Part shown: positions 15,009-64,000 of the stretch, piece after piece
Layout of the letters: the number at the start of each line of letters is the position of its first letter
Numbering within the stretch: the stretch's first letter is position 1
Assembly (NCBI RefSeq): GCF_964194155.1
Contig: NC_135890.1
Location: forward strand, 39,184,001-39,248,000
Reading direction: 5' to 3'
From: Cetorhinus maximus
Taxonomy: Eukaryota
Length of the DNA stretch: 64,000 bases
Notes under the pieces: model-generated
What the model was told of the DNA's origin: nothing
Databases searched by the model: none
Seen by the model: only the letters and a program-made list of their open reading frames with translations
Translations under genes and position numbers: made by a program

Positions 15009-18000
15009 CTGAAATAGAATTTTGTTTTACTTTTAGAAAAGGTTGAAGAAAATCTGTCAGCATATAATCTTATAGCACAGAAGGAAGCTGTTCAGCCTGT
15101 CGTGCCTGTGGCAGATCTTTGAAAGAGTTATCCAAGTTAGTCCCTCTCCCCATAGCCCTGCAAATAGTCTTCAAGTACATGTCCATTTAAAAGTTCCTAT
15201 GGAATCTGATTCCACCACTCTTTCAGGTAGTGTTTTCTAGATCTTAGCCCTCCAATGTGAAAAAATAAATTCTCATTTCCCTTATTTGAATTTTGCCAAT
15301 TATTTTAAACCAATGGCCTCTAGTTATTGACCTACATGCAAGAGGAAACAGTTTCTCCCTACTAGCTTTCTCAAAACCCTTCAAATTTTGGATAACTCTA
15401 TTAGGTCATCCCTTAGTCATTTCCACTCCAAAGAGAACAATCACAGCTTCTTCAATTTCTCCACAACACTTGTCAATCCCCTCTTTCTCACCAAGGCCTT
15501 AGTACCCTTCCTAAAATGTGATGCCCAGGATTGTGCTGAGGCCTGACCAGTGATTTGTGAAGGTTTAGCAATACCACCTTGTTTTAGTATTCAGTGCTCC
15601 CCATAACAAAGCCAAGTATCCCATATACTTCTTTAACCAACTTATTAACTTGCTGTGTCTACTTCAAAGGTTGTGAGTATACACACCCAGGTCCCTCTGC
15701 TCTTGCATCCCTCCCTTCAAAATAATACCTCATGTGTCTGCCCAATTCAAGTCTGTGTGCCACCCTGAAATGTTTACAAATGTTGCCAAACTTTGTATCC
15801 AAGTTTTGTATTATTAGCAAACTTTAAAATTGTATTCACCATACCCAAGACTTGGACAGTTATAAAAGTAATGGTCATAATACCAATCTCTGGGGGACCC
15901 AGTGCTAATGTCTCTGGTCAGAAAACAATTTGTTCACCATTATTCTCTGTTTCCTATCCGTTAGCCAATTACATACCCAAGTTACCATCATCCCTTCAAT
16001 CCTACATGCTTATGTTTTGAATAAGTCTGATATGTGGCACTTTATCAAATGCCTTTTAAAACAGTTCATAAATACATTCACCGTACCACCTTTATCAACT
16101 CTTTTGTTACTTAGATTAACCAGACAGGATTTACTTGGCAAATCAGTGCTGGCTGTGATTAATTAACCCATGCTTTTCCAAGTGTCAATTAATTTTGTCC
16201 TTGATGGCGGTCTCTAGCAGCTTTTCTACCAAAGATAGATTGACTATCTTGTTGTTACCAGGTTTCTCTCTCTCCCTTTTTTTGAATTGGGGTGTTATAT
16301 TTTCAATCCTCCAGTTCTCTGGTACCATTCCCATATACGAAAAGGATTGAACAATTGTGTAAAGTGTTTCTGGTATCTCCATTTTTGCTTCCCTCGGCAA
16401 CATATGAGGCATCCCATCTGGACTAGATGACTTGTGAACTTTTGAGTGATGCTAAATAGCACCTCCTTTCTATTTGTTATCCCATCTAATATTGGTTTCC
16501 TCCTCTTCTACTATAACATTAACTTCATCTTATGTGAAGACAGATGCAAAAGCTCAGTGCTCCAGACATGCCCTCTGCCTCCAAAGGTTTCAATCTTCAT
16601 CCCACCACTACTTTAATTATCTTTTCATTTTTGCCTATATAAAAAAGAAATTCTTTTTGTTATCTGCTAACTTCTCATTCTTGTTCCCTATCTTACATCC
16701 AATCTCCCTCTGCATTCAGCCTGGTTTTCTACTGAAGTTGGCTGAGTGAAAGAAAGTAGAGAGTAGTGGTGAACAGTTGTTCTCTCGAACTCCAGGATTG
16801 TACATAAGTGGGGCTCCCCGGGGTTGGTGTTAGGATCACTGCTTTTCTTGATCTACATTAATGATTTGGTGTGCAGGGCACAATTTCAAAATATGCAGCC
16901 AATGCAAAATTTGGAGGAGTTGGTGATCTATTACGAGGAGAGTGACAGAATTCAGGAATACATAGATAGGCTGATGGAAAGGGCAGACATGTAGCAGATG
17001 AAATTTAATGCACAGAAGTGTGAAGTGATACATTTAATGGGAAGAACGAGGAGAGGCAATATAAATTAAAAAGATACAATTCTAAAAGGGTGCAGGAGCA
17101 TATACCTGTGGGCATATGTGCACAAATTATTGAAGGTGGCAGGGCAGGTTGAGAAAGTGGTTAATAAGACAAAGATTCAGACTTTGGGGCAGACAATATA
17201 AAAGCAGGCAAGTTATAGTGAAACTTTATAAAAACACTGGCTCGACCTCAACTGGAATATTGTACCCAATCCTGGTAACCACACTACAGAAGGATGGGAA
17301 GGCTATAGCGGGCACAGAAAAGATTTAACGCAATGCTTCCAGGGATGGGAGATTTCAGTTACATGGATAGATTGGCAAAGCTGGGGCTGCTCCCCTTAAG
17401 GAAGAGAAGGTTGAGAGAAGACTTGATAGAGGTGTTCAAAATTATAAGGAAGCTGGACAGGGGAGATAGGGAGAAACTGTTCCTTTTGACTGAAGGGTTG
17501 ACAGCTAGAGGACACCAATTTAAGATAAATGGCAAAAGAAGCAACAGCAACATGAAGAAAATTTTTTTTTAATGCAGTGAATGGTTAGGATCTGGAATGG
17601 ACAGGGTGGAGGAGGCAGATTCAATCGTGGCTTTCAAAAGGGAATTGGATAATTATCTTAAGAAAAGAGATTTTCAGGGCTATGAAGAAAAGACAGGGGA
17701 GTTTGACTAGCTGAATTGCTTTTGGAGAGCTGGTACAGACAGGACAAAACAGCCTCCTACTATGCTGTAACCATTCTATGCTGTGCCTGAATTTGGTAAA
17801 AGTGGGTATTATAACTTATGTTTCCTTTATCATCTGGGGTTCTAGCTTTGGATGCCCTTTTTTTCCTCCTTATGAGGACATGCTTGGTTTGTATTCGGGC
17901 CTAATGTTGCTCACAAAGCACAAGTCAACACTCTTATTAATTTGCTTATATCACAAGTTAGTGATAACAGATCTTTGTGTTGATTTAGAATTTACCATCA

Positions 18001-21000: not shown

Positions 21001-24000
21001 ACAGCATGTGATTAGCAAATGGAATGTTGTCATTTATTGCAAGGGAAATAGAATATAGAAGTAGGGAAGTTTTACTATAGTTGTATAGGGTATTGGTGAG
21101 ACCACATCTGGAGTACTGTGTACAGCTTTGATCTCATTTAAGAAAGCATATAAATGTTTTAGAGGCAGTTCAGAGAAGGTTCACTTGATTGATACCTGGG
21201 ATTGGGGGGAGTCGGGGGGTCGGCGGGGTGGGAGGTGGTGCGGGTAGTTATCTTATGAAGAAAGATTGGACAGGCTGAGCCTGTATCTACTGGAATTTAG
21301 AAGAATTACAGGTGATCTTATGGAAACATAAGATCCTGAGGGGGACTTGACAGGTGGATGCTGAAAGGGTGTTTGCCCTTGTGGTAGAGACTGGGGGACA
21401 CAGTTTAAAAATAAGAGGTTGCCCATTTAAGTCAGAGATGAGGAAAATTCTTTTCTGAGGGCTGAGTCTCTATGGAGTTCTCTTCCCCAGGAAGTGGTGG
21501 AGGCAGGGTTATTGAATACTTTTAAGGCAGAGGTAGATAGATTCTTGACTAACAAGTGAGTCAAAGGGTATTGAGAGTAGGTAAGAATATGGAGCTGAGG
21601 CCACAATCAGATCAGCCATGATCTTATTAAATAATGGAGCAGGCTCGAAGAGGCCGAATGGCCTATTCCTGCTCTTAATTCATATGGTCATACAAAGGGG
21701 ATACAGAAGAGGCCAGAATCTACTCAGCTTACTGGGAGGGGGCACTGTTAGAAAGACAAGGGTGGTGCTAAGGCCATGAAGGGGTGTTAAAAACAAGACC
21801 ACAATTTTTAAAAATGGGACAGCAAAGACAGACAGGAATGATGGATGAACACTTAGCATAAGAACAGAGGCAGAATTTTACATTTGTTGATGTTTACAGA
21901 AGATGAAGGAATGCAGACCGGCTGGGAGAGTGTTGAAATTGTTGAGTATAGAGATGAAAAACTAAGGGATGGAACACAGTTGCAGTTGAGTTGAGGCAAG
22001 TACAAAATTGGGGCATTGCTCTGGAGATGGAAGTAGGCAGTTTTTGTGACATAGACAACATCTATAGATCAGCTTGATGTTCCATTTGATCTCTAGAGTG
22101 CAAACAGTATCCAATGGGAAGAATGGGAGGCATGGCAATGGAGTTTGTGGCAGGAATGGAGGACAATACTTTTGATCTTTTAATGTTTAAATGGAGCAAA
22201 TTGTGCCTCAACCAAGAGTGAATGGCAGACAATTTGACAAGACAAGAAAGTGCAACATCAAGAGAGCTTGGGCAGAGGTAGAGCTGAACATTGTCAGTGT
22301 ACATGTACTGAACTGAGGAGGATCATGTCAAACTTCAAAAAGGAGAGACAAGTTGGTGGGATGGACAGACAAGTGCCAGATGCAATTTAATGGAGAGAAG
22401 TTTGGAGCAATTCATTTTTGTAAAAAGAATGCAGACAGACAATATAAACAAGGTACAATTCTAAAACGGATGCAGGAGCAGAAGGACCTGGGTGTATATG
22501 TGCATAAATCAATGAAGGTGGCAGGACAGTTTGAGAGAGCAGTGAATAAATTATAAGGCATCCTAAGCTTTATCATCAGGAGCGTAGAGAGCAAAAGAAA
22601 AGTTATAAAAACAGAATTACCTGGAAAAACTCAGCAGGTTTGGCAGCATCGGCGGAGAAGAAAAGAGTTGACGTTTCGAGTCCTCATGACCCTTCATTCT
22701 AGCATCCGCAGTTTTTTGTTTTTATCTCTGTGGAAGGGTCATGAGGACTCGAAATGTCAACTCTTTTCTTCTCCGCCGATGCTGCCAGACCTGCTGAGTT
22801 TTTCCAGGTAATTCTGTTTTTATTTTGGATTTCCAGCATCCGCAGTTTTTTGTTTTTATCTCTGTGGAAGAGTCATGAGGACTCGAAACGTCAACTCTTT
22901 TCTTCTCCGCCGATGCTGCCAGACCTGCTGAGTTTTTCCAGGTAATTCTGTTTTTGTTTTGGATTTCCAGCATCCGCAGTTTTTTGTTTTTATTTTTGTT
23001 TTTAAAAGAAAAGTTATGTTAAACTTGAATGAAATACTGGTTCAGCCACAACTGAAGTATTGCACTCAGTTCTGGGCACATTTCAGAAAGGATGTGAAGG
23101 CATTAGAGAAGGTGCAGAAAAAAATTCATGAGAATGGTTCCACGGATGAGAAACTTCAGTTACATACCTAGATTAAGAAGTTGGAACAGTTTTCCTTGGA
23201 GAAGCTTGAAAGGAAATTTGATAGAGGTATTCAAAATCAAGGGAGGTCAGGATAGAGCAGATAGGGAGAAACTGTTTCCATTGTTGGAAGGATCAAGAAC
23301 TGGAGGGCACAGACTTAAGGTAACCGGCAAAAGGAACAATAGTGACAAGAGGAACAATTTCTTCATGCAGCAAGTGGTTAGGGTCTGGTATGCACTGCCT
23401 GAGAGAGTGTGGTGGAAGCAGGTTGAGTAGAGGCTTTCAAAAGAGAATTGGATGTGATTTGTAACTTTAGGGCCATTTCACTGTTGTGACAAAGGTGGAA
23501 ACCTGATTGGAGAGGTTCAAAAAAAATGTAATGGGAAAGATGTCCATATATTTGAAAGGCAACAGCACTGACGATTGAGGAAATGAGGTTGGAGGTGGGT
23601 GAGTAGCTTCCAAGGAAGAGGTTAAAGGTGGGCATTTTGAGGAGGATGATGTTGATATCTTTTAAAAAAAGGAAAAAAAATCATGAGAATTGATTCATTG
23701 TAGCAGGGAATCATTTGCTGTGTTAGCTATCATAGGAGCTAGGGATTATCTTTGTTTTGAATGAGGGAGAAAGGAATCACTAGGAGGAACAGCTGGCATG
23801 GGAGAAAAGGGGGGGGTTTTCTGGGTACAAGAACAAAAAAGTGGTCAGCTGAGGCGAATGGATGGCCAAAGGCTAGTCTGGAGTTTAAAGTGCAGTTATA
23901 AGTGATTTGGAGGTGTTTTCTCTTCTCGGCACCCTCTCCCAGGTGAATGCAGGAGGAAGTCGGATTCGAAGAAGATATAGAATATAGGTGTTGAGGAATA

Positions 24001-38600: not shown

Positions 38601-38799
38601 TCACAGCCCGCCACATGCACAGGTGTAGCTCCGACATGGGACTGGAGCAGCAGACACTGGGGATATGTTGCGGGTTCGATGTGGCGTGAGACAGTCTGGA
38701 GCTGGAGCATACATGCCCTTGAAGCCCCAGAAATAGATTGGTGAATGGACCAGGGTGAGACATGCTGGACGTCTCAATGTCAAATGGCAAAAACAAAAA

Positions 38800-39527
38800 T
38801 CCTCTGCCTGTCCGCAAGCATGACCCAGACCTCCCTGTCGCTTGCCATTTCAACACACCACCCTGCTCTCATGCCCACATATCTGTCCTTGGCGTGCTGC
38901 ATTGTTCCACTGAAGCTCAACGCAAACTGGAGGAACAGCACCTCATCTTCCGACTAGGCACTTTACAGCCTTCCGGACTGAATATTGAGTTCAACAATTT
39001 TAGTTCATGAACTCTCTCCTCCATCCCCACCCCCTTTCCGACCCCCCCTTTTTTTCTTCCCCAATAATTTATATAGATTTTTCTTTTCCCACCTATTTCC
39101 ATTATTTTTAAATGTATTTCCATCCATTGTTTTATCTCTACCTTTTGGCCTATTTCGATCCCTTCCCCCCACCCCCATTAGGGCTATCTGTACCTTGTTT
39201 GTCCTGCTTTCTACCCTTAATGTCACTTATTAGCACATTCCTTAGATAATATCACCACCTTCAACACCTCTTTGTCCTTTTGTCTATGACATCTTTTGGC
39301 TATCTCCACCTATCACAGGCCCTCTATCCAGCTCTACCTGTTCCATCCCCCTTAAACCAGCTTACATTTCACCTCTTTTCTATTTTTACTTAGTTCTGTT
39401 GAAGTGTCATACGGACTCGAAACGTTAACTGTGTTCCTCTCCACAGATGCTGCCAGACCTGCTGAGTTTTTCCAGGTATTTTTATTTTTGTTTTGGATTT
39501 CCAGCATCCAGAGTTTTTTGCTTTTAT
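38800..39527 (+). mobile_element. 5'-truncated Penelope-like retroelement: GIY-YIG endonuclease C-terminus plus 3' region with hammerhead motif
   Basis: Peptide PVACHFNTPPCS...RKLEEQHLIFRLGTLQPSGLNIEF is typical of the PLE GIY-YIG end. Pyrimidine-rich tail and HHR motif at 39392-39430. Possible low-complexity TSD AAAAACAAAA (38789-38798 / 39528-39537). Confidence 0.85.
39392..39430 (+). ncRNA. Hammerhead motif with variant core (CUGUUGA)
   Basis: AGUU-CUGUUGA-AGUGUC-AUAC-GGACUC-GAAA-C-GUU-AACU. Confidence 0.55.
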
Positions 39528-53200: not shown

Positions 53201-56200
53201 ATGCGTCACAACTGCAGCCTGCAGGAGTTCCTGGATGCCATTGTGATCCAGGGCAATCACATCGCTAGTAAATGTTTATGGCTTGAGGAGCTTTGGCTCA
53301 GAGTCATTGAGATGGAGGCCAAGCTGCAGACATTGGGGTGCATCAGGGAGGGGGAAAGTTACCTGGACACTTTGTATCAGGAAGCGGTCACACCAATGGT
53401 CAGGGACAGGAGGCTGTGACTGTGACTGAGACAGGTAAGGGGACCCAGAGGGCAGGAGTGCAGCAGCCTCAGCCTTTGCCATTGTCCAATAGGTTTGAGG
53501 TACTTTCAGGCTGTTTGCATGAAAGTGAGGGCCGCAGAGTGGATGAACTGACTAGCCATGGCACAGGAAGCCATTCAAGTGGGGGGAGCAAAAAGGAATG
53601 TATGTAGTGATGGCAGGGGACAGTATTGTGAGAGGATTGACACTGTTCTCTGCAGCAAGAATGAGACACCAGACAGCTGTGTTGCCTGCCCGGTGCCAGG
53701 GTTCAGGACATCAGCTCAGGGCTGGAGAGGAACTTGGAGTGGGATGCGGAGGGGGAGGGGGAGGATCTGGTCATCATGGTCCATGTAGGTACCAATAATA
53801 CAGTCAGTACAAGAAAAAAGGTTCTGCACAGTCAGTATGAAGAGCTAGGCGCCAAATTAAGAAGCAGAACCTCAAATATAATAATCTCTGGATTATTTCC
53901 TGAGCCACGTGCAAATTCGCATAGGGCAAATAAGATTAGACAAATGAATGTGTGACTCAAAGACTGGTAGATGGGAATTCTGGTTCTAGGGAAAGTAGGG
54001 GCTGTACCATTGCGATAGTCTATACCTGAACAATGCTGGGACCAGTGTTCTCATGAGCTGTATAACTAAGGAAGTAGAGAGGATTTTAAACTAAATAAAT
54101 AGTGGCAGCAAGAGACCAAATGAGGGAAGATGTTGAGACAAGGCTAGAGAGAAAGGCACTAATATGGGAAATGATAAAAGACTGTGACAGGAAGGGATAG
54201 AGAGTACAAATCCAGGAGTAAATCAGCAGATAAGACTAGAGGTTACAAAAATAACAAAAAGACAAAACCAAAGGCTCTGTATCTGAATGCACGTAACATT
54301 CGAAACAAATCAGATGAACTGATAGCTCAAATGGAAAGAAGTACGTACAATCTGATAGCAATTAGAGACATAGCTGCAGGATGACAAAGACTGGGATCTG
54401 AATAATGAAGGGTACGTGACATTTAGGAAAGACAGGAAGCTAGGAAAAGGTGGAGGGGTGGCTCTGTTAATTAACGATGACTTTAGTACAATAGTGAGAG
54501 ATGGTCTAAGTTCAGGAAACCAGGATATGGAAGCGGTTTGGGTAGGGATGAGAAATGATAAAGGCAAGAAGTCACTTTTTGGAGTGGTGTACAAGCCCCC
54601 TAAGAGTACCCATACAGTAGGACAGAGTATAAAGGAAAAAGTAATAGCAGCTTGTCAGAAAGTTATGGGGACAATCATGGGGGATTTTAATCTACATACA
54701 GACTGGAAAAATCTGATGGGCAAATGAGGAAGAGTTCATAGAATGTTTTTGGGATAGTTTCCACATTCTGGAGCCAACCAGAGAGCAGGCTATACTAGAC
54801 CTGTCTTGTGCAATGAGATAGGATTAATTAATGACCTCATACAGAAGGCACCCCTAGGTAGCAGCGATCGTAATATGATTGAATTTTACATTCAGTTTTG
54901 AGGGAGAGAAGAATGGGCCCAAGACTGGCATTTTAAACTTAAATAAGGGCAATTATGAGGGCATGAAAGCAGAGCTAGCTAAAGTGAATTAGGCAAATTA
55001 GGTTAAGGGATAGGTCCATAGAGATGCAGTGGCAGACATTTAAAGGGATATTTCAGAATACACAAAATAGATACATTCCAACAAGAAAGAAAAATTCAAA
55101 GGGAAGAACCTACTATCAGTGGTTAACCAAAAAAATTAAAGATAGTATCAAATTTGAAGTAAAAGCATATCATTGCAGAAGGATGGGTGGCAAGTCATAA
55201 AATTATTAAAGAGGAAAAAAAATTAGAATACTAGATAAAGCTACCTAGAAATATAAAAACAGATTGTAGGAATTTCTACAGGCATTTAAAAATAAAAAAG
55301 CTAACAAAGTGAGCACTGGTCCTATAGAAAAAGTCTGGGGAATCAATAATAGAAAATAAGGAGGTGGCCAATGAATTGAACAGGTATTTGCATCGTCTTC
55401 ACTACAGAGGATACAAGTAACATCTCAGGAATAGCTGTAAATCAGGAAATGGAAGAGGGAAAACTCAAGAAAATTACAATCACCAGGGAAATCGTACTGA
55501 GCAAATTTTTAGAGCTGTAGACTGACAAATCCCTTGGTCCTGATGGACTTCATCCTAGGGTCTTAAAAGAAGTGGCTAGTGAGAAAGTTGGTGCATTGGT
55601 TTTAATTTTCCAAAATTTCCTAGACTCGGGGAAGGTTCCATTAGATTAGAGAAAATGTAACTCCTTTATTCAAAAATGGAGGGAAATGTTAGAAGGTATT
55701 ATTAAAGATGCTATAGCAGGGCACAAGGTAATCAGGCAGAGGCAACATGGTTTTGTGAAAGGAAAATCATGTTAACCAATTTATTGGAGTTCTTTGAAGA
55801 AGTTACATGTGCTGTGGATAAAGGGGAACCAATGGATGTACTGTAATAGATTTCTAGAAGGCATTTGATAAGGTGCCACATCAAAAGTTATTGTGGAAAA
55901 TAAAAGCTTATGGTGTAAGGGGTAACATATTGGCATGAATAGAAGTTTGGCTAGCTAACAGGAAACAGAGTGGGTATAAATGGGTCATTTTCTGGTTGGC
56001 ATTATGTAACAAATGGTGTGCCACAGGAATCAGTGCTGGGAACTCAACTTCTTACAATTTATATAAATGACTTAGATGAAGAGACCGAAGGTATGGTTGC
56101 TAAATTTGCTGATGATGCAAAGATAAGTAGAAAAGTAAGTTGTGTAGAGGACATAAGGAGGCTACAAGGGATAGAGATAGGTTAAATGAGCGGGCAAAGA

Positions 56201-59200
56201 TCTGGCAAACAAAGTATAATGTGTGAAAATGTGAAATTGTCTACTTTGGAAGGAACAATAAAAAAGCATATTATCTAAATGGTGAGATTGCAGAGCTGAG
56301 GTGCAGAGGGATCTGGGTATCCTAGTGCATGAATCACAAAAGGCTAGTATGCAGGTACAAGAAGTAATTAGGAAAGCAAATAGAAAGTTATCATTATTGC
56401 GAGGGGAATTGAAAACAAAGGTAGAGAAGTTATGCTTCAGTTATATAGGGCATTGGTGATACCACATCTGGAGTACTGTGTACAATATTGGTCTCCTTGT
56501 TTAAGGAAAGAGGTAACTGAGTTGGAAGCAGTTCAGAGGTTTACTGGACTAATACCTGGAATGGGAGGCTTGTCTTAAGAGGAAAGGTTGAACAGGCTAG
56601 GCTTGTATCCGCTGGAGTTTATAAGAGTAACAGGCGACTTGAGTGAAACATAAGATCTTGAGGGGTCTCGACAGGGTGGATGTGGAAAGGATGTTTCCTG
56701 TTGTGGGAGAATCTAGAACTAGGGGTCAGTGTTTAAAAATAAGAGGTCGGCCATTTAAGACACAGATGAGGAGAATTTTTTTTCTTTCAGGGTATCGTGA
56801 ACCTCAAAAGGCGGTGGAAGCAGAGTCTTTAAATATTTTTCCAGCAGAGCTAGATAGAGTTTTGATAAGCTAAGGGGTGAAAGGTTATCGGGGTAGGTGG
56901 GAACATGGAGTTAAGGTTACAATCAGATCAGCCATGATCTTATCGAATGGTGGAGCAGGCCTGAGGGGCCAAGTGGCCTGCTCCTTCTCCTGATTTGAGT
57001 TCTCTGATGAAATAATAGAAGGTTGAAGGTAGTGAAATAGATGTATATATGGACTTTCAAAAAGCATGATACAAGTAACATCTCAGGAATAGCTGTAAAT
57101 CAGGAAATGGAAGGGGGAAAACTCAAGAAAATTACAATCACCAGGGAAATCGTGCTGAGCAAATTTTTAGAGCTATCGACTGACAAATCCCTTGGCCCTG
57201 ATGGACTTCATCCTAGGGTCTTAAAAGAAGTGACTAGTGAGAAAGTTGGTGCATTGGTTTTACAAACCACTGAAATAGAAGCACAGTATCAAAGGAACAG
57301 CGTTAACTTGGGTGTGTAACTGGCCCAGGGACAGGAAGCAGAGAATAATAATGAATTGATGTTTTTCTGACTGGACAGAAGCATGTAGTGGGGTCAGTAT
57401 TAGGACCATTGAGTTTCTTATAATATATAACTTGGGAGTGGTGAGTACAATTTTGAAGTTTGCAGATGATACAACATTTGGCAATATAGTAAACAGTGAA
57501 CAGGATAGCAACAGAATTCAAGAGGCCATAGAGACTGGCAAAATGAGCAGACGCAGATGCCATTTAATACGGTTAAGTGTGAAGTAATGCACTTTCATAA
57601 GAACATGGAGGAGGAGTATAATTCAAACAGTACTATGCAAGTAGGTGGTGGTGGGCCACCTTCTTGAATACAACTGAATGGTTTGTTGGGCCATTTCAGA
57701 TGGCAGTTACGAGTCAACCACCCTGTTCTGGGTCTGGAGTCACATATAGCTTAGACTGGGCAAGTACAGCAGAATAATTTCCCTAAAGGAAGTAAGTGAA
57801 CAAGATTTTTTTTTAATGACAATCCTGTAGTTTCATATTCACCATTATATTAGCTTTTTATTAGTTCACATATTAGCTTTTTATTCCAGGTTTATTTAGT
57901 AAACTGAATTTAAATTCCTAGCTGCCATGGTGGGATGTGAACTCCTGTCTCCGTTTTAACAGTCTGGGCCTCTGGATTCGTAGGCCAGTAACAAAGGGTA
58001 AGTTAGCCTAGTGGCTGTCTGAGATGGTTAAGGAAGGTATTCAAAACTGAGGTCTTTTGTAGAGAAACTAAGGAGAAACTGTTTCCTTTGGCAAGTGGAT
58101 GAGTAACCAGAGGTCATAGATTTTTAAAAAGTGGCAGCAGGGGGAGAATTTTTCCTCATACAAAGGATTGTTAGGATCTGCAACGCACCACTTGAAAGGT
58201 GCAATCAGATTCCATAATAATTTTCAAAAGGCAATTGGACATTTATTTGAAGGGAACTAATCTGCACATTTTGAAAGAAAAAGGAGTGTGAGATTACATA
58301 CAAACAAAAATTAGGAGCAGGAGGCGGCCACTCGACCCCTTGAGCATGCTCCATCATTCCAATAAGATCAGGGCTAATCTGATTGCAGCCTCAACTCCAC
58401 ATTCTGCCTACTCCCGATAACCTTTGACACCCTCGTTAGTCAAAAATCTCTCTACCTTAAAAATATTAATTGACCCGGCCTCCACCGCTCTCTGGGGAAG
58501 AATGTTCCAAAGTTTCACGATCCGCTGACCAGAAAAAAATTTCTTCTCATTTCCATCTTAAATGGGAGACCCCCTTATTTTTAAGCTGTGTTCCATAGTT
58601 CTAGAATCTCTCACAAGGGGGAACATCCTTTCAGCATCCACCCTGTCAAGTCCCCCGAGTGTCTTATATGTTTCAAATAAGATTACCCCTTATTCATCTA
58701 AACACCAATGGAAACAGACCTAACCTTTCCTCGTAAGATAACCTCCCCCCTCATCCCAGCTAGTCAGATGAACCTTCTCTGAACTGCTTTTAGCTCATTT
58801 ATATCCTTTCCTAAATAAAGGAGGCCAAAACTGTACACAGTTCTCTAGACGTGGTCTCACCAACACCCTGTATACTTGCAACAAAACATCCCTACTTTTA
58901 TATTCCATTCCCCTTGCAATAAGCGACAACATTCCATTTGCCTTCCTGATCACTCACTGTACCTACATACTAACTTTTCCTGATTCATGTACCAGGACAC
59001 GCAGATCCCTCTGTAACTCTGTTCTGCAATTTCTCTCTATTTAAATAATATGCTGTTTTTCCATCCTACCTGCCAAAGTGGACAAGTTCACATTTTCACA
59101 CATTTTACTCCATCCACCAAATTTTTGCCCACTCACTTAACTGATCTGTGTCCCTTTGCAGGCTCCTGATGTCCTCTTCACAACTTACTCTCCTACCTAT

Positions 59201-62200
59201 CTTTGTGTCATCAGCAAACTTAGCAACCATACAGTTGGTCCCTTCATCCAAGTCATTGATATAAATAGTAAATAGTTGACGCCCAGACACTAATCCCCGT
59301 GGCACCACAGTTATCACATCTTGCCAACCCGAAAACGGCTCATTAATGCCTACCCTCTGATTCCTGTTAGCTAACCAATCTTCTATCTGTGCTAATATGT
59401 TACCCCTTACACTATGAGCTCTTATTTAGTGTAGTAACCTTTGATGTGGCACCTTGTCAAATGCCTTCTGGAAATCTAAGTACAGGTTCCCTTTCATCCA
59501 TGTTGCTTGTTACTTCCTCAAATAACTACAATAAATTAGTAAAACATGATTTCCCTTTCACAAAACCATGTTGACTCTACCTGATTGCATTGAGATTTTC
59601 TAAGTGCCCCTTCATAACCTCCTTAAGAATAGATTCCAGCAATTTCCACAAGACTGATGTTAAACTAAATGGCTTATAGTTTCTGCTTTCTGTCTCCCTC
59701 CTTTCTTGAATAGAGGAGTCACATTAACTATTTTAGAATCTGATGGGATCTTTCCTGAATCTAGGGAACATTGGAAAATTAAGACCAATGCACCTACTAC
59801 CTCAGCAGCCTCTTCTTTTAAGACCCTAGGATGAAGTTCATCAGGGCCTGGGGACCTATCAGCTTTTAGTTCTAATAATTTTCTCAGTACCCTTTCCCTG
59901 TTTTCAGTTCCTCCCTCCCTTGCACCTCCTGATTCACAATTATTTTTGGGATGTTATTTAAATTCTCTCCAGTGAAGACAGGTGCAAAATATCTGTTCAA
60001 TTCATCCATCATTTCCTTGTTTTCCATTATTAATTCCACATTCTCACTCTATATAGGGCCAATGCTCACTTTATTTACTATTTTTCTTTTTAAATACCTG
60101 TAGAAACTCTTACTATCTGTTTTTACAATTCTAGCTAGCTTTCTCTCATACTCTAATATCTCCCTCCTTATTAATCCTTTAGTCATTCTTTGCTGTTCTT
60201 TATATTCTGTCCAATCTTCTGACCTGCCAGCCATCTTTGCGCAATTATATGCTTTTTCCTTCAATTTGATACTATCTTTAACTTCTTAGGTAGGCGTAGA
60301 TGGTGCGTCCTTCTCTTAAGAGTGCTCCTCTCTCACTGGAATGTAACTTTTGAGCATTTAGAAATATCTCCTTAAATGTCTGCCACTGCATCTCTACTGA
60401 CCTATCCCTTAAACTAATTTCCCAGTTCACTTTAACCAGCCCTGTCTTCATGCCCTCATAACTGCCCTTACTTAAGTTTAAAGCACTAATCTTAGATCCA
60501 CTCCTTTTTCCCTCAAACTGAATGTGAAATTTAATCATATTATGATCACTGCTACCTAGGGGCATCTTCACTACGAGGTCATTAATTAATCCCGTCTGAT
60601 TGTACATTACTAGGTCTAACGTAGCCTGCTCTCTGTTCAGTACTAAAACGCGCTGCTCTAAGAAACTGTCCCAAAAACACTATGAACTCATTATCCAGGC
60701 TAACTTTGCCAATCTGATTTGTCCAATCTATTTGTAAGTTAAAATCACCCACGATTATCACCATACCTTTCTCACAAGCCCCCATTATTTCTTCCTATAT
60801 GCCCCATTCTACAGTGTGGCTACTGTTAGGAGGGGGGGGGAGGCTATAAACCACCCGTACACGTGACTTCTTACCTTTACTATTTCTCAACTCTACCCAA
60901 ATTGATTCTACCTCTTGATCTCCAGAACCAAGATCATCACTCTATATGATACCAATGTCATCCTTAATTAACAGAGACATCCCACCACCTTTTCCTAGCT
61001 TCCTGTCCTTCCTAAATGTCATGTGCCCTTGAATATTAAGGTCCAAGTCTTAGCCATTACAGGGACATGGCTGCAGGATGACAATCAGTTCATACATATT
61101 TATTTCTATGATTCTGTAGGAAAAAGGGTCTATTGCTTCCAAGTAAAATACCAGCCTACATATTTCTAATTCAAAAGATGAATAGACATTCAAAGCACCA
61201 TATGCTTACAAAAAGGTTCTTACTTGCAAAATAATTTAGCAATTTGTCTTCTCTTCCAAATATTTCAGATGGCTTGATGATGATGGAATCTGGGAATTCT
61301 TCTCTCACAACCTTTTCTCCAACAGCCTGCCAGAAAAGATTCAGAACAAACGCATTTCCATTTTGCTCTGTGCACTTTGCTACTAATACATAGGGCTTTT
61401 AACTTTTGGAGGTCCCATGGAGGTTCTTACCTTTGTTCTTAGAAACTTTGAAATGCTCTTCATGTGAGCATTCAAGTGAGAAACATGGATTAATTTTTCA
61501 ACTCCGGCTTCCCTGGATGCATGAGCAATATCCTGTGGAATTTTGACATGGACATCCTCAAACTTGAAGTTCCTAATAGAAAGAAAAGGATTTAACCACT
61601 GATCACAAAACAAAGAAAAACACTCTGGAAAAATGCAATATTTTTGGCAGTCAATGTCAAATACTCCCAAGTCTAGATGGAGAGTAATGTTCACCTATGG
61701 GGAGGAGCGGATATAAACAGAGTTTGTGGTGGAGGTGAAAGATGTCCAATATGCTCCAATGTTGGAGGCAATTTAGGTCATTTAAGATTGAAGGCCTGAC
61801 AAGCAGTCTAACAACACAAGGCATGAAGGGGTCAAGGTGGTTGTGGTGAAGTAGAGTTGGGCATCATCAGCATCTGCAGGGAAGCTGACCCCATATTTGT
61901 AGTTAATGTAGTTAATAAGGGGAAGTCTTCTGCCTTCATGGGTAAATTGGTTATTAGAATTTTATTCTAAATGTAGTATCTGAAATTAAACATTAGAGAT
62001 TGGAAACTCAGCATCCAGAGAAATTATGGGCACAATTTTGGTAATTTTGTCTTTGTGTGATGGTGTAAAATGGGTGATGGCCAATCGGCAGTCTGTATTA
62101 TATATATCTCAATTTCAGGAGATGTGTGTCAACTGTGATTCAGTTGGTAGCACTCTCACCTCTGAGTTAAAATGTTGAGAGTTCAAGTCCCACTTCAAGA

Positions 62201-63455: not shown

Positions 63456-64000
63456 ATAAAAGCAAAAAACTGCGGATGCTGGAAATCCAAAACAAAAACA
63501 AAAACAAAAATACCTGGAAAAACTCAGCAGGTCTGACAGCATCTGCGGAGAGGAACACAGTTAACATTTCGAGTCCGAATGACTCTTCATCAGAACTAAA
63601 GAAAAATAGAAGAGGTAAAATATAAGCTGGTTTAAGGGGGGGTGGGACAGGTAGAGCTGGATAGAGGGCCAGTGATAGGTGGAGATAGCCAAAAGATGTC
63701 ATAGACAAAAGGACAAAGAGGTGTTGAAGGTGGTGATATTATCTAAGGAATGTGTTCATGGTGACATTAAGGGTAGAAAGCAGGATGAGCAAGGTACAGA
63801 TAGCCCTAGTGGGGGTGGGGTGGGGGGGAAGGGATAGAAATAGGCTAAAAGGTAGAGATAAAACAATGGATGGAAATACATTTAAAAATAATGGAAATAG
63901 GTGGTAAAAGAAAAATATATATAAATTATTGGAAAAAGGGGGATCGGAAAGGGGGTGGGGATGGAGGAGAGAGTTCATGATCTAAAGTTGTTGAACTCAA
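63456..64000 (-). mobile_element. Penelope-like element 3' region, same family as 38800-39527, running off the window edge
   Basis: Highly similar reverse complement of about 38985-39527; contains an intact HHR core. Confidence 0.88.
63559..63597 (-). ncRNA. Minimal type I hammerhead ribozyme, intact core
   Basis: AGUU-CUGAUGA-A-GAGUC-AUUCG-GACUC-GAAA-U-GUU-AACU: stem I AGUU/AACU, 5-bp stem II, vestigial stem III, NUH triplet GUU. Confidence 0.8.

Follow-up and report, generated by a model that had tools for sequence, protein, structure and literature searches.

A 134-nt hammerhead-like tandem array is explained by Penelope-like element biology and is not a new retrozyme family

Introduction

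The window analysed here, a stretch of 64,000 nt, holds a short array in which hammerhead-like letters recur, and the question raised by this locus is whether the array belongs to a mobile family of its own or is a product of Penelope-like elements (PLEs). The sequence-only reading had described it as a non-autonomous hammerhead repeat family akin to retrozymes, with one-off template jumping by reverse transcriptase (RT) as a caveat. Retrozymes consist of tandem repeats that carry working type I hammerheads and give rise to circular RNAs (PMC7229834). A preprint traces their origin to PLE pLTRs, describes them, with a mean consensus of 363 bp, in the one chondrichthyan that it includes, and gives eight of nine predicted dimers as inactive (bioRxiv 10.64898/2026.07.22.740005).

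Results

TRF detected a 134-nt period with 2.2 copies and 97% matches at 22697-22993. This repeat lies in a 397-nt insert between two exact copies of a 14-bp TSD (AAAAGAAAAGTTAT), of which no other copy occurs in the window, and the insert interrupts a CR1-type fragment, a label taken over from the sequence-only reading (Table 1). When the insert and one TSD copy were deleted in silico, the flanks became collinear with the copy at 16963-17649 (70% over 717 columns), which makes this a true insertion. The first 89-91 nt of the insert (22607-22695/6) form an inverted arm that is 98% complementary to both units. TRF, the exact TSD and the empty-site alignment together bear out what had been read from the letters, namely a 397-nt insert with a 14-bp TSD, an inversion of about 90 nt and two 134-nt units in a CR1 fragment, and the motif letters of each unit are as described. 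The insert has no coding sequence, the unit has a GC content of 43%, and the window contains roughly ten more pieces from this repeat family.

Table 1. Features of the insert, its flanks and two related PLE copies (unit position +1 is window position 22861, or 22727)
Feature	Positions	Strand	Remarks
CR1-type fragment, left part	22346..22592	+	collinear with 16963-17649 across the empty site
Left TSD, 14 bp	22593..22606	+	
Inverted pLTR arm, unit positions 95 to 6/7	22607..22696	-	outer end at the first PLE 3'-end cluster (88-106)
Direct arm start, 5'-truncated	22697..22732	+	tail positions 105-133 and natural tail continuation to +140
True unit 1, parent +7 to +140	22733..22866	+	G8-A9, stem II, GAAA, GUC site, tail, continuation
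Hammerhead remnant 1, from stem II as far as the cleavage triplet	22736..22758	+	stem I of 1 bp
True unit 2, +7 to +133	22867..22993	+	outer end at the second 3'-end cluster (128-142)
Hammerhead remnant 2	22870..22892	+	stem I of 1 bp
Tail-end stutter, T-rich, 10 nt	22994..23003	+	
Right TSD	23004..23017	+	
CR1-type fragment, right part	23018..23453	+	collinear with 16963-17649
Related longer PLE copy	38759..39527	+	endonuclease ORF end, 3' UTR, pLTR with intact stem I region
Related longer PLE copy	63456..64000	-	3' UTR and pLTR, CUGAUGA core

The insert carries five substitutions, all of them private transitions and none common to both units; repeat and insertion are therefore of about the same age, in keeping with the earlier description of a non-coding tandem made when the insert arrived. 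The units differ from each other at 3/133 positions, and each part is about equally far from the family majority. The inverted arm has the parental T at N7, its inner end, where the array has G.

In parent coordinates the two junctions fall at 22732/22733 and 22866/22867 and are base-identical; the previously proposed 134-nt period holds, while the unit starts given as 22727 and 22861 shift to these joints. The parental sequence after the tail (L080, L082) is CTCTGTG followed by the element body, all seven continuation letters being present in 3 of the 35 tails scored, and the parent head reads CAGTT-CTG(T/C)TGA-AGGGTC. Most simply, then, the array's TCTCTGTG/GAAG is the tail to +140 fused to the head at +7, and the apparent CUGUGGA core is the usual tail continuation, CTCTGTG, running straight into G8 of the ribozyme. 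Of each unit as drawn from 22727 and 22861, the first six letters are probably tail continuation and not ribozyme. An alternative origin of the joint is a crossover within the shared TCTGT plus one substitution, and under either reading the joint deletes AGUU, the 5' strand of stem I.

The junction together with stem II had two matches in the 3.99-Gb assembly, both at this locus, with exact matching and with up to two mismatches alike. A 24-nt junction had five genome matches, two here and three at ordinary 3' ends; the latter (L001, L004, L005) were rejected as junction carriers, being plain 3' ends that meet host or TSD sequence with the same first letters. A junction-agnostic pattern with a 12-42-nt gap gave eight genome matches, made up of this locus, three nested insertions and four other private joints, and the window junction was absent from these seven other short tail-to-head loci, all of whose joints differ. 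The three nested cases (L008, L012, L014) were rejected as short tail-to-head tandems since they are nested in an older pLTR with the core inside the TSDs; they are younger PLE copies within older pLTRs, a position that the search pattern favours. The window's long PLE copies (39395, 63594) also lack the junction, as had been stated. The genome check put forward with the sequence-only reading therefore yielded no locus beyond this one at up to two mismatches. The proposed repeat family is confined to one locus in 3.99 Gb, and the retrozyme-family model is largely refuted by the junction search, a junction unique to the locus being the first of three outcomes that the sequence-only reading had named as refuting it; the caveat of one-off template jumping accords with a junction unique to the locus.

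We then considered the hammerhead itself. Stem I is 1 bp in both units, and at least 4 bp in 62 of the 80 sampled copies with a core. With a hammerhead fold imposed, the two units gave +1.2 and +0.3 kcal/mol, compared with -7.5 kcal/mol for L082, and in neither of the consecutive units are the core, stem I and stem II of a type I hammerhead all complete. Because the joint removes the 5' strand of stem I, the hammerhead of the array appears to be broken, and neither self-cleavage nor the seeding of a retrozyme is expected of the unit. The earlier caveat had coupled a poor stem I with U at the conserved A6. Stem I is indeed reduced, but U or C at position 6 is family-wide and not decay: positions 6-7 in the 80 core copies (L016-L105) read TT in 38, CT in 37, CC in 2, CG in 2 and TC in 1, and A6 was found in 0/80. 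To judge from these copies, a U at this core position belongs to the subfamily. A young subfamily that includes window copies 39395 and 36618 has U or C at this position with stems I and II kept. A6C is a natural hammerhead variant able to cleave (PMC7151607), so position 6 alone is no proof of a dead ribozyme. Minimal PLE hammerheads have poor activity and work as dimers (PMC4209133); from the legend to Figure 1 of that paper we infer that a dimer would gain helix III only and would still require stem I.

Rfam returned no hammerhead match at the gathering score in the window, nor at E ≤ 10 in 22500-23100, and it misses intact minimal hammerhead copies too. The miRNA-type hairpin matches that it gave in 22500-23100 were set aside as arising from the inverted repeat, and the other short matches as chance. 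When 66-nt cores were folded freely, neither the array nor the parent copies reached a significant z-score, so that this measure does not discriminate between them.

The unit is the pLTR of an EN+ PLE with a Neptune/Nematis-type linker. An exact search of the 3.99-Gb genome with a 36-mer from the unit gave 6,256 matches; the 36-mer adjoins ORF pieces of 389 and 428 aa in L073 and L072 (RT plus C-terminal GIY-YIG), which supports the PLE origin suggested earlier. The CPRRRCNTC found 5' of GIY-YIG is the CX2-5CxxC motif between RT and EN, by which the Neptune/Nematis clade is defined in PMC8557442; judging from this motif the clade would be Neptune/Nematis-type and not Poseidon, with Neptune and Nematis left undivided by the linker. 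A PDB search with the ORF gave no matches. The 83-aa ORF piece of the longer copy at 38759..39527 had no Pfam match, and by eye it matches the C-terminus of the L073 ORF.

Family statistics were taken from 100 copies among the matches listed, all from the first 48 Mb of C1 (loci L016-L105). In this sample 37 copies have 3' ends at 88-106 and 49 at 128-142, and an inverted partner lies within 700 nt in 44/100. The arms of the insert end at +95 and +133, that is, in the two 3'-end clusters of the family, and the inversion is therefore nothing special. A tail of 30-40 nt and an inverted pLTR are known for PLEs (PMC8557442, PMC3846280). In vitro, cleavage of both target strands is followed by extension from two internal RT starts that bound the tail, and ribozyme cleavage is not needed for PLE insertion (PMC11167929). 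Mobilisation by PLE RT/GIY-YIG machinery, as previously proposed, is thus supported by the PLE 3' ends, the inverted arm and the TSD, whereas the 5' inversion and TSD that had been taken as marks of a separate mobile unit are ordinary in this PLE family.

The 5' ends of short copies peak at -1 (12/100, with 23 at -3 to +1, in the same sample among the matches listed), and +6/+7 is not a 5'-end hot spot there (2/100). The peak sits on an initiator-like TCAGTT, which resembles the Inr consensus and is also the 5' strand of stem I. The peak at about -1 is probably the transcription start, and the solos of about 100-135 nt would then be strong-stop-like products.

Contigs from 4 of 22 runs, whose RNA status is mostly guessed, gave family coverage when compared with 22845-23400, and no tail-to-core joint was present among the 15 joints listed of 45, which come from contigs only, with the tail end repeat-masked. 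A contig of depth 6269 in run X4 was rejected as a circle because it traces to one solo copy, L192. This copy (L192:1490-1660, G000:C25) is a solo pLTR with a stuttered 5' end that matches the X4 contig, the RNA status of which is a guess, and it probably sits inside a highly expressed host transcript.

Tail-to-head PLE tandems also exist elsewhere in this genome. A pattern with a 43-280-nt gap gave at least 137 tail-to-head matches genome-wide; 100 of the 137 were listed and represent 93 loci, from which 13 were left out because their filler looked non-PLE by eye, so that 80 loci (87 spacers) were analysed. Donors lie at 131-160 in 17 of these loci and at 189-369, an upper limit set by the search pattern, in 63; acceptors span -243 to -1. 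Donors avoid 145-188, with a single exception at 160, and this gap is perhaps a protein-bound region downstream of the tail. The joints are mostly private. The few that recur do so mainly at microhomologies, namely 250/-120 in four loci and 242/-143 and 242/-36 in two to three loci each; the four 250/-120 loci (L125, L165, L166 and L178, on C3, C10, C10 and C15) could reflect descent or a microhomology hot spot. Common ancestry was rejected for the L080 junction, as the matches at L108 and L109 belong to another subfamily and the joint position therefore recurs independently.

Among the 74 scorable loci, the same junction was present on both arms in 13/59 with long donors and in 0/15 with short donors (p=0.058). 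When the comparison was restricted to loci with an adjacent inverted arm, the counts were 13/30 (donor at +189 or beyond) against 0/8 (donor at 160 or less; Fisher p=0.034, post hoc). Repetition of the junction on one arm was seen in 8/59 of the scored long-donor loci. The 13 both-arm loci are L080, L114, L118, L119, L139, L140, L160, L161, L165, L166, L171, L173 and L178. The same deletion junction on both arms argues that the template carried it, and these loci are better retrozyme candidates than the window locus because their acceptors lie upstream of stem I. Arm ends lay within 2 nt of their own acceptor in 12/110 cases against 2.8 expected (0/20,000 permutations); for inverted arms alone the coincidence was not significant (3/23 against 1.5 expected, p=0.16).

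Four 367-nt units with an identical junction were found at L168 (G000:C11:102663607-102664990), three of them identical over the 78 nt compared and the fourth different. This locus is a nascent pLTR minisatellite with a unit close to the 363-bp chondrichthyan retrozyme mean. At L126 the junction is repeated although the first unit extends about 600 nt upstream. Later DNA expansion is thus visible at L168 and probably at L126. Tandem by-products are a regular, low-frequency output of PLEs in this genome, and the window array is the shortest multi-unit array found in this continuum of PLE mini-tandems.

Discussion

Our preferred explanation of the array, which we hold to be the probable one, is a single insertion by the protein of a high-copy EN+ PLE, during which RT re-read a short linear pLTR RNA. 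The endonuclease cut an A-rich site in the CR1 fragment with a 14-bp stagger. As the matching ends and the in vitro work (PMC11167929) suggest, both target ends would then have primed RT at two internal pLTR starts, +95 giving the inverted arm and +133 the direct arm. The template may have been a short linear pLTR RNA with its 5' end or a hard stop at +6/+7; RT on the direct arm would have run off at that point, restarted at tail position +140, done so twice, and then stopped at +105, where it would have been joined to the other arm. The product would be an inert by-product without the 5' strand of stem I. A linear template is suggested because the inverted arm ends where the junction acceptor lies, with the parental T there, and because arm ends coincide with their own acceptors more often than expected; however, this T is a single base that may have been added without a template, the coincidence of arm ends with acceptors is not significant for inverted arms alone, and +6/+7 is no hot spot for 5' ends. 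Fold-back priming of the inverted arm was rejected, as no supporting microhomology was seen by eye.

Linear re-reading demands two equally precise jumps for the two base-identical junctions, which a circle or a DNA duplication would give free. We regard it as rather unlikely that PLE RNA from +7 to +140 was privately ligated without a ribozyme and copied for 2.2 rounds. Such a one-off rolling circle would fit the identical junctions with their private mutations and the both-arm and one-arm repeats at scored loci with donors at +189 or beyond (13/59 and 8/59), as well as the arms of L080, neither of which contains the other, so that fold-back copying cannot explain them; circular PLE templates have also been proposed (PMC4209133). 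It does not fit the inverted arm, which ends exactly at the joint on the parental base without crossing it, nor the short-donor loci with an inverted arm, none of which has a crossing junction (0/8 against 13/30, the post hoc comparison given above). There is a small chance that a partial tandem arose by a single template jump, perhaps at the 5-nt TCTGT microhomology, and soon gained a unit by DNA duplication. Expansion does occur in the family (L168, L126), and unequal crossover has been invoked for the birth of retrozymes (bioRxiv 10.64898/2026.07.22.740005), but the units have no derived substitution in common except the junction base, albeit in small numbers, and the distance between them (3/133) is similar to that of each part from the family majority. 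It is very improbable that the array belongs to a genuine non-LTR retrozyme family, spreading through dimer self-cleavage and circularisation. The tandem non-coding unit, its 43% GC, the long TSD and the PLE ancestry would suit one (PMC7229834; bioRxiv 10.64898/2026.07.22.740005), as would the cleaving A6C variant (PMC7151607); against it stand the loss of stem I in both units, which even a dimer would presumably need (PMC4209133), and a joint that is not at the cleavage site. Only one locus was found in 3.99 Gb, an argument that would weaken if a source locus were lost or missing from the assembly.

Among known systems, the template-jump chimeras of TPRT include the end-to-end jumps of R2 and the twin priming of L1. 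The window insert resembles them in having inverted and direct arms from two primers and a junction that joins an RNA 5' end to a downstream position, but its arms overlap and start at fixed internal PLE sites instead of a poly(A) tail. With EN+ PLE insertions (PMC8557442, PMC3846280, PMC11167929) it shares an inverted 5'-truncated arm, a tail on one side only, a TSD of about 10-14 bp and a minimal hammerhead in the pLTR; it differs from them in having no coding sequence and in a partial tandem that has contracted to 134 nt and whose repeats meet at a base-identical junction. Animal non-LTR retrozymes are likewise short non-coding tandems from PLE pLTRs with low GC and a TSD longer than 4 bp (here 14 bp). 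Unlike them, however, the window array has an incomplete hammerhead in every unit, occupies a single locus, and has a 134-nt unit below the 220-350 nt of the monomers studied in that work (PMC7229834; bioRxiv 10.64898/2026.07.22.740005). The preprint asks for two consecutive units with complete motifs, and the array has none. The window array thus behaves as a PLE partial tandem, and its likeness to a retrozyme does not extend to hammerhead integrity or copy number; the locus is real, is explained by known PLE biology and is not a new family.

The locus by itself carries little weight, being a single dead by-product in a genome with thousands of pLTR fragments; it serves as a caution that a tandem with hammerhead-like letters is insufficient for a retrozyme call. 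The wider population is of some value for the question of how PLEs form tandem and inverted structures. The only novel lead is the hint of circular or re-read templates given by the both-arm junctions, a pattern for which no publication was found in the literature searched, including few subscription papers. We tentatively raise the possibility that the PLE RNP regularly copies short pLTR RNA fragments 'round' without ribozyme cleavage. The copying might use covalent mini-circles or a precise end-to-end re-reading by both RT subunits, and the fragments kept to about +189 or beyond would be those that template both arms and keep an intact hammerhead. If so, retrozymes would be born de novo from PLE transcripts in this genome, and a few may already be shared (L125, L165, L166, L178). 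A young, high-copy family with a mappable RNA 5' end (about -1), RT starts at +97 and +133 and dozens of private junctions, some of them on both arms, allows circular and jumping templates, and the origin of retrozymes from PLEs, to be tested directly in the genome.

Splicing was rejected as the source of the joint, as splice-like signals predict a different joint. In the pLTR region of L082 and at window 22940-22946, a splice-like branch-point, pyrimidine and AG run lies directly 5' of the core, and there is a splice-like donor CAG/GTAATT at +80 and a possible acceptor directly 5' of the first ORF ATG. A putative 5' intron in the pLTR region would hold both RT starts, and its donor is not kept in older subfamilies. 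Elsewhere in the window, two LINE-like stretches of about 2.6 kb (54381-56996 and 58308-61057) lie in inverted orientation and are 73-75% identical.
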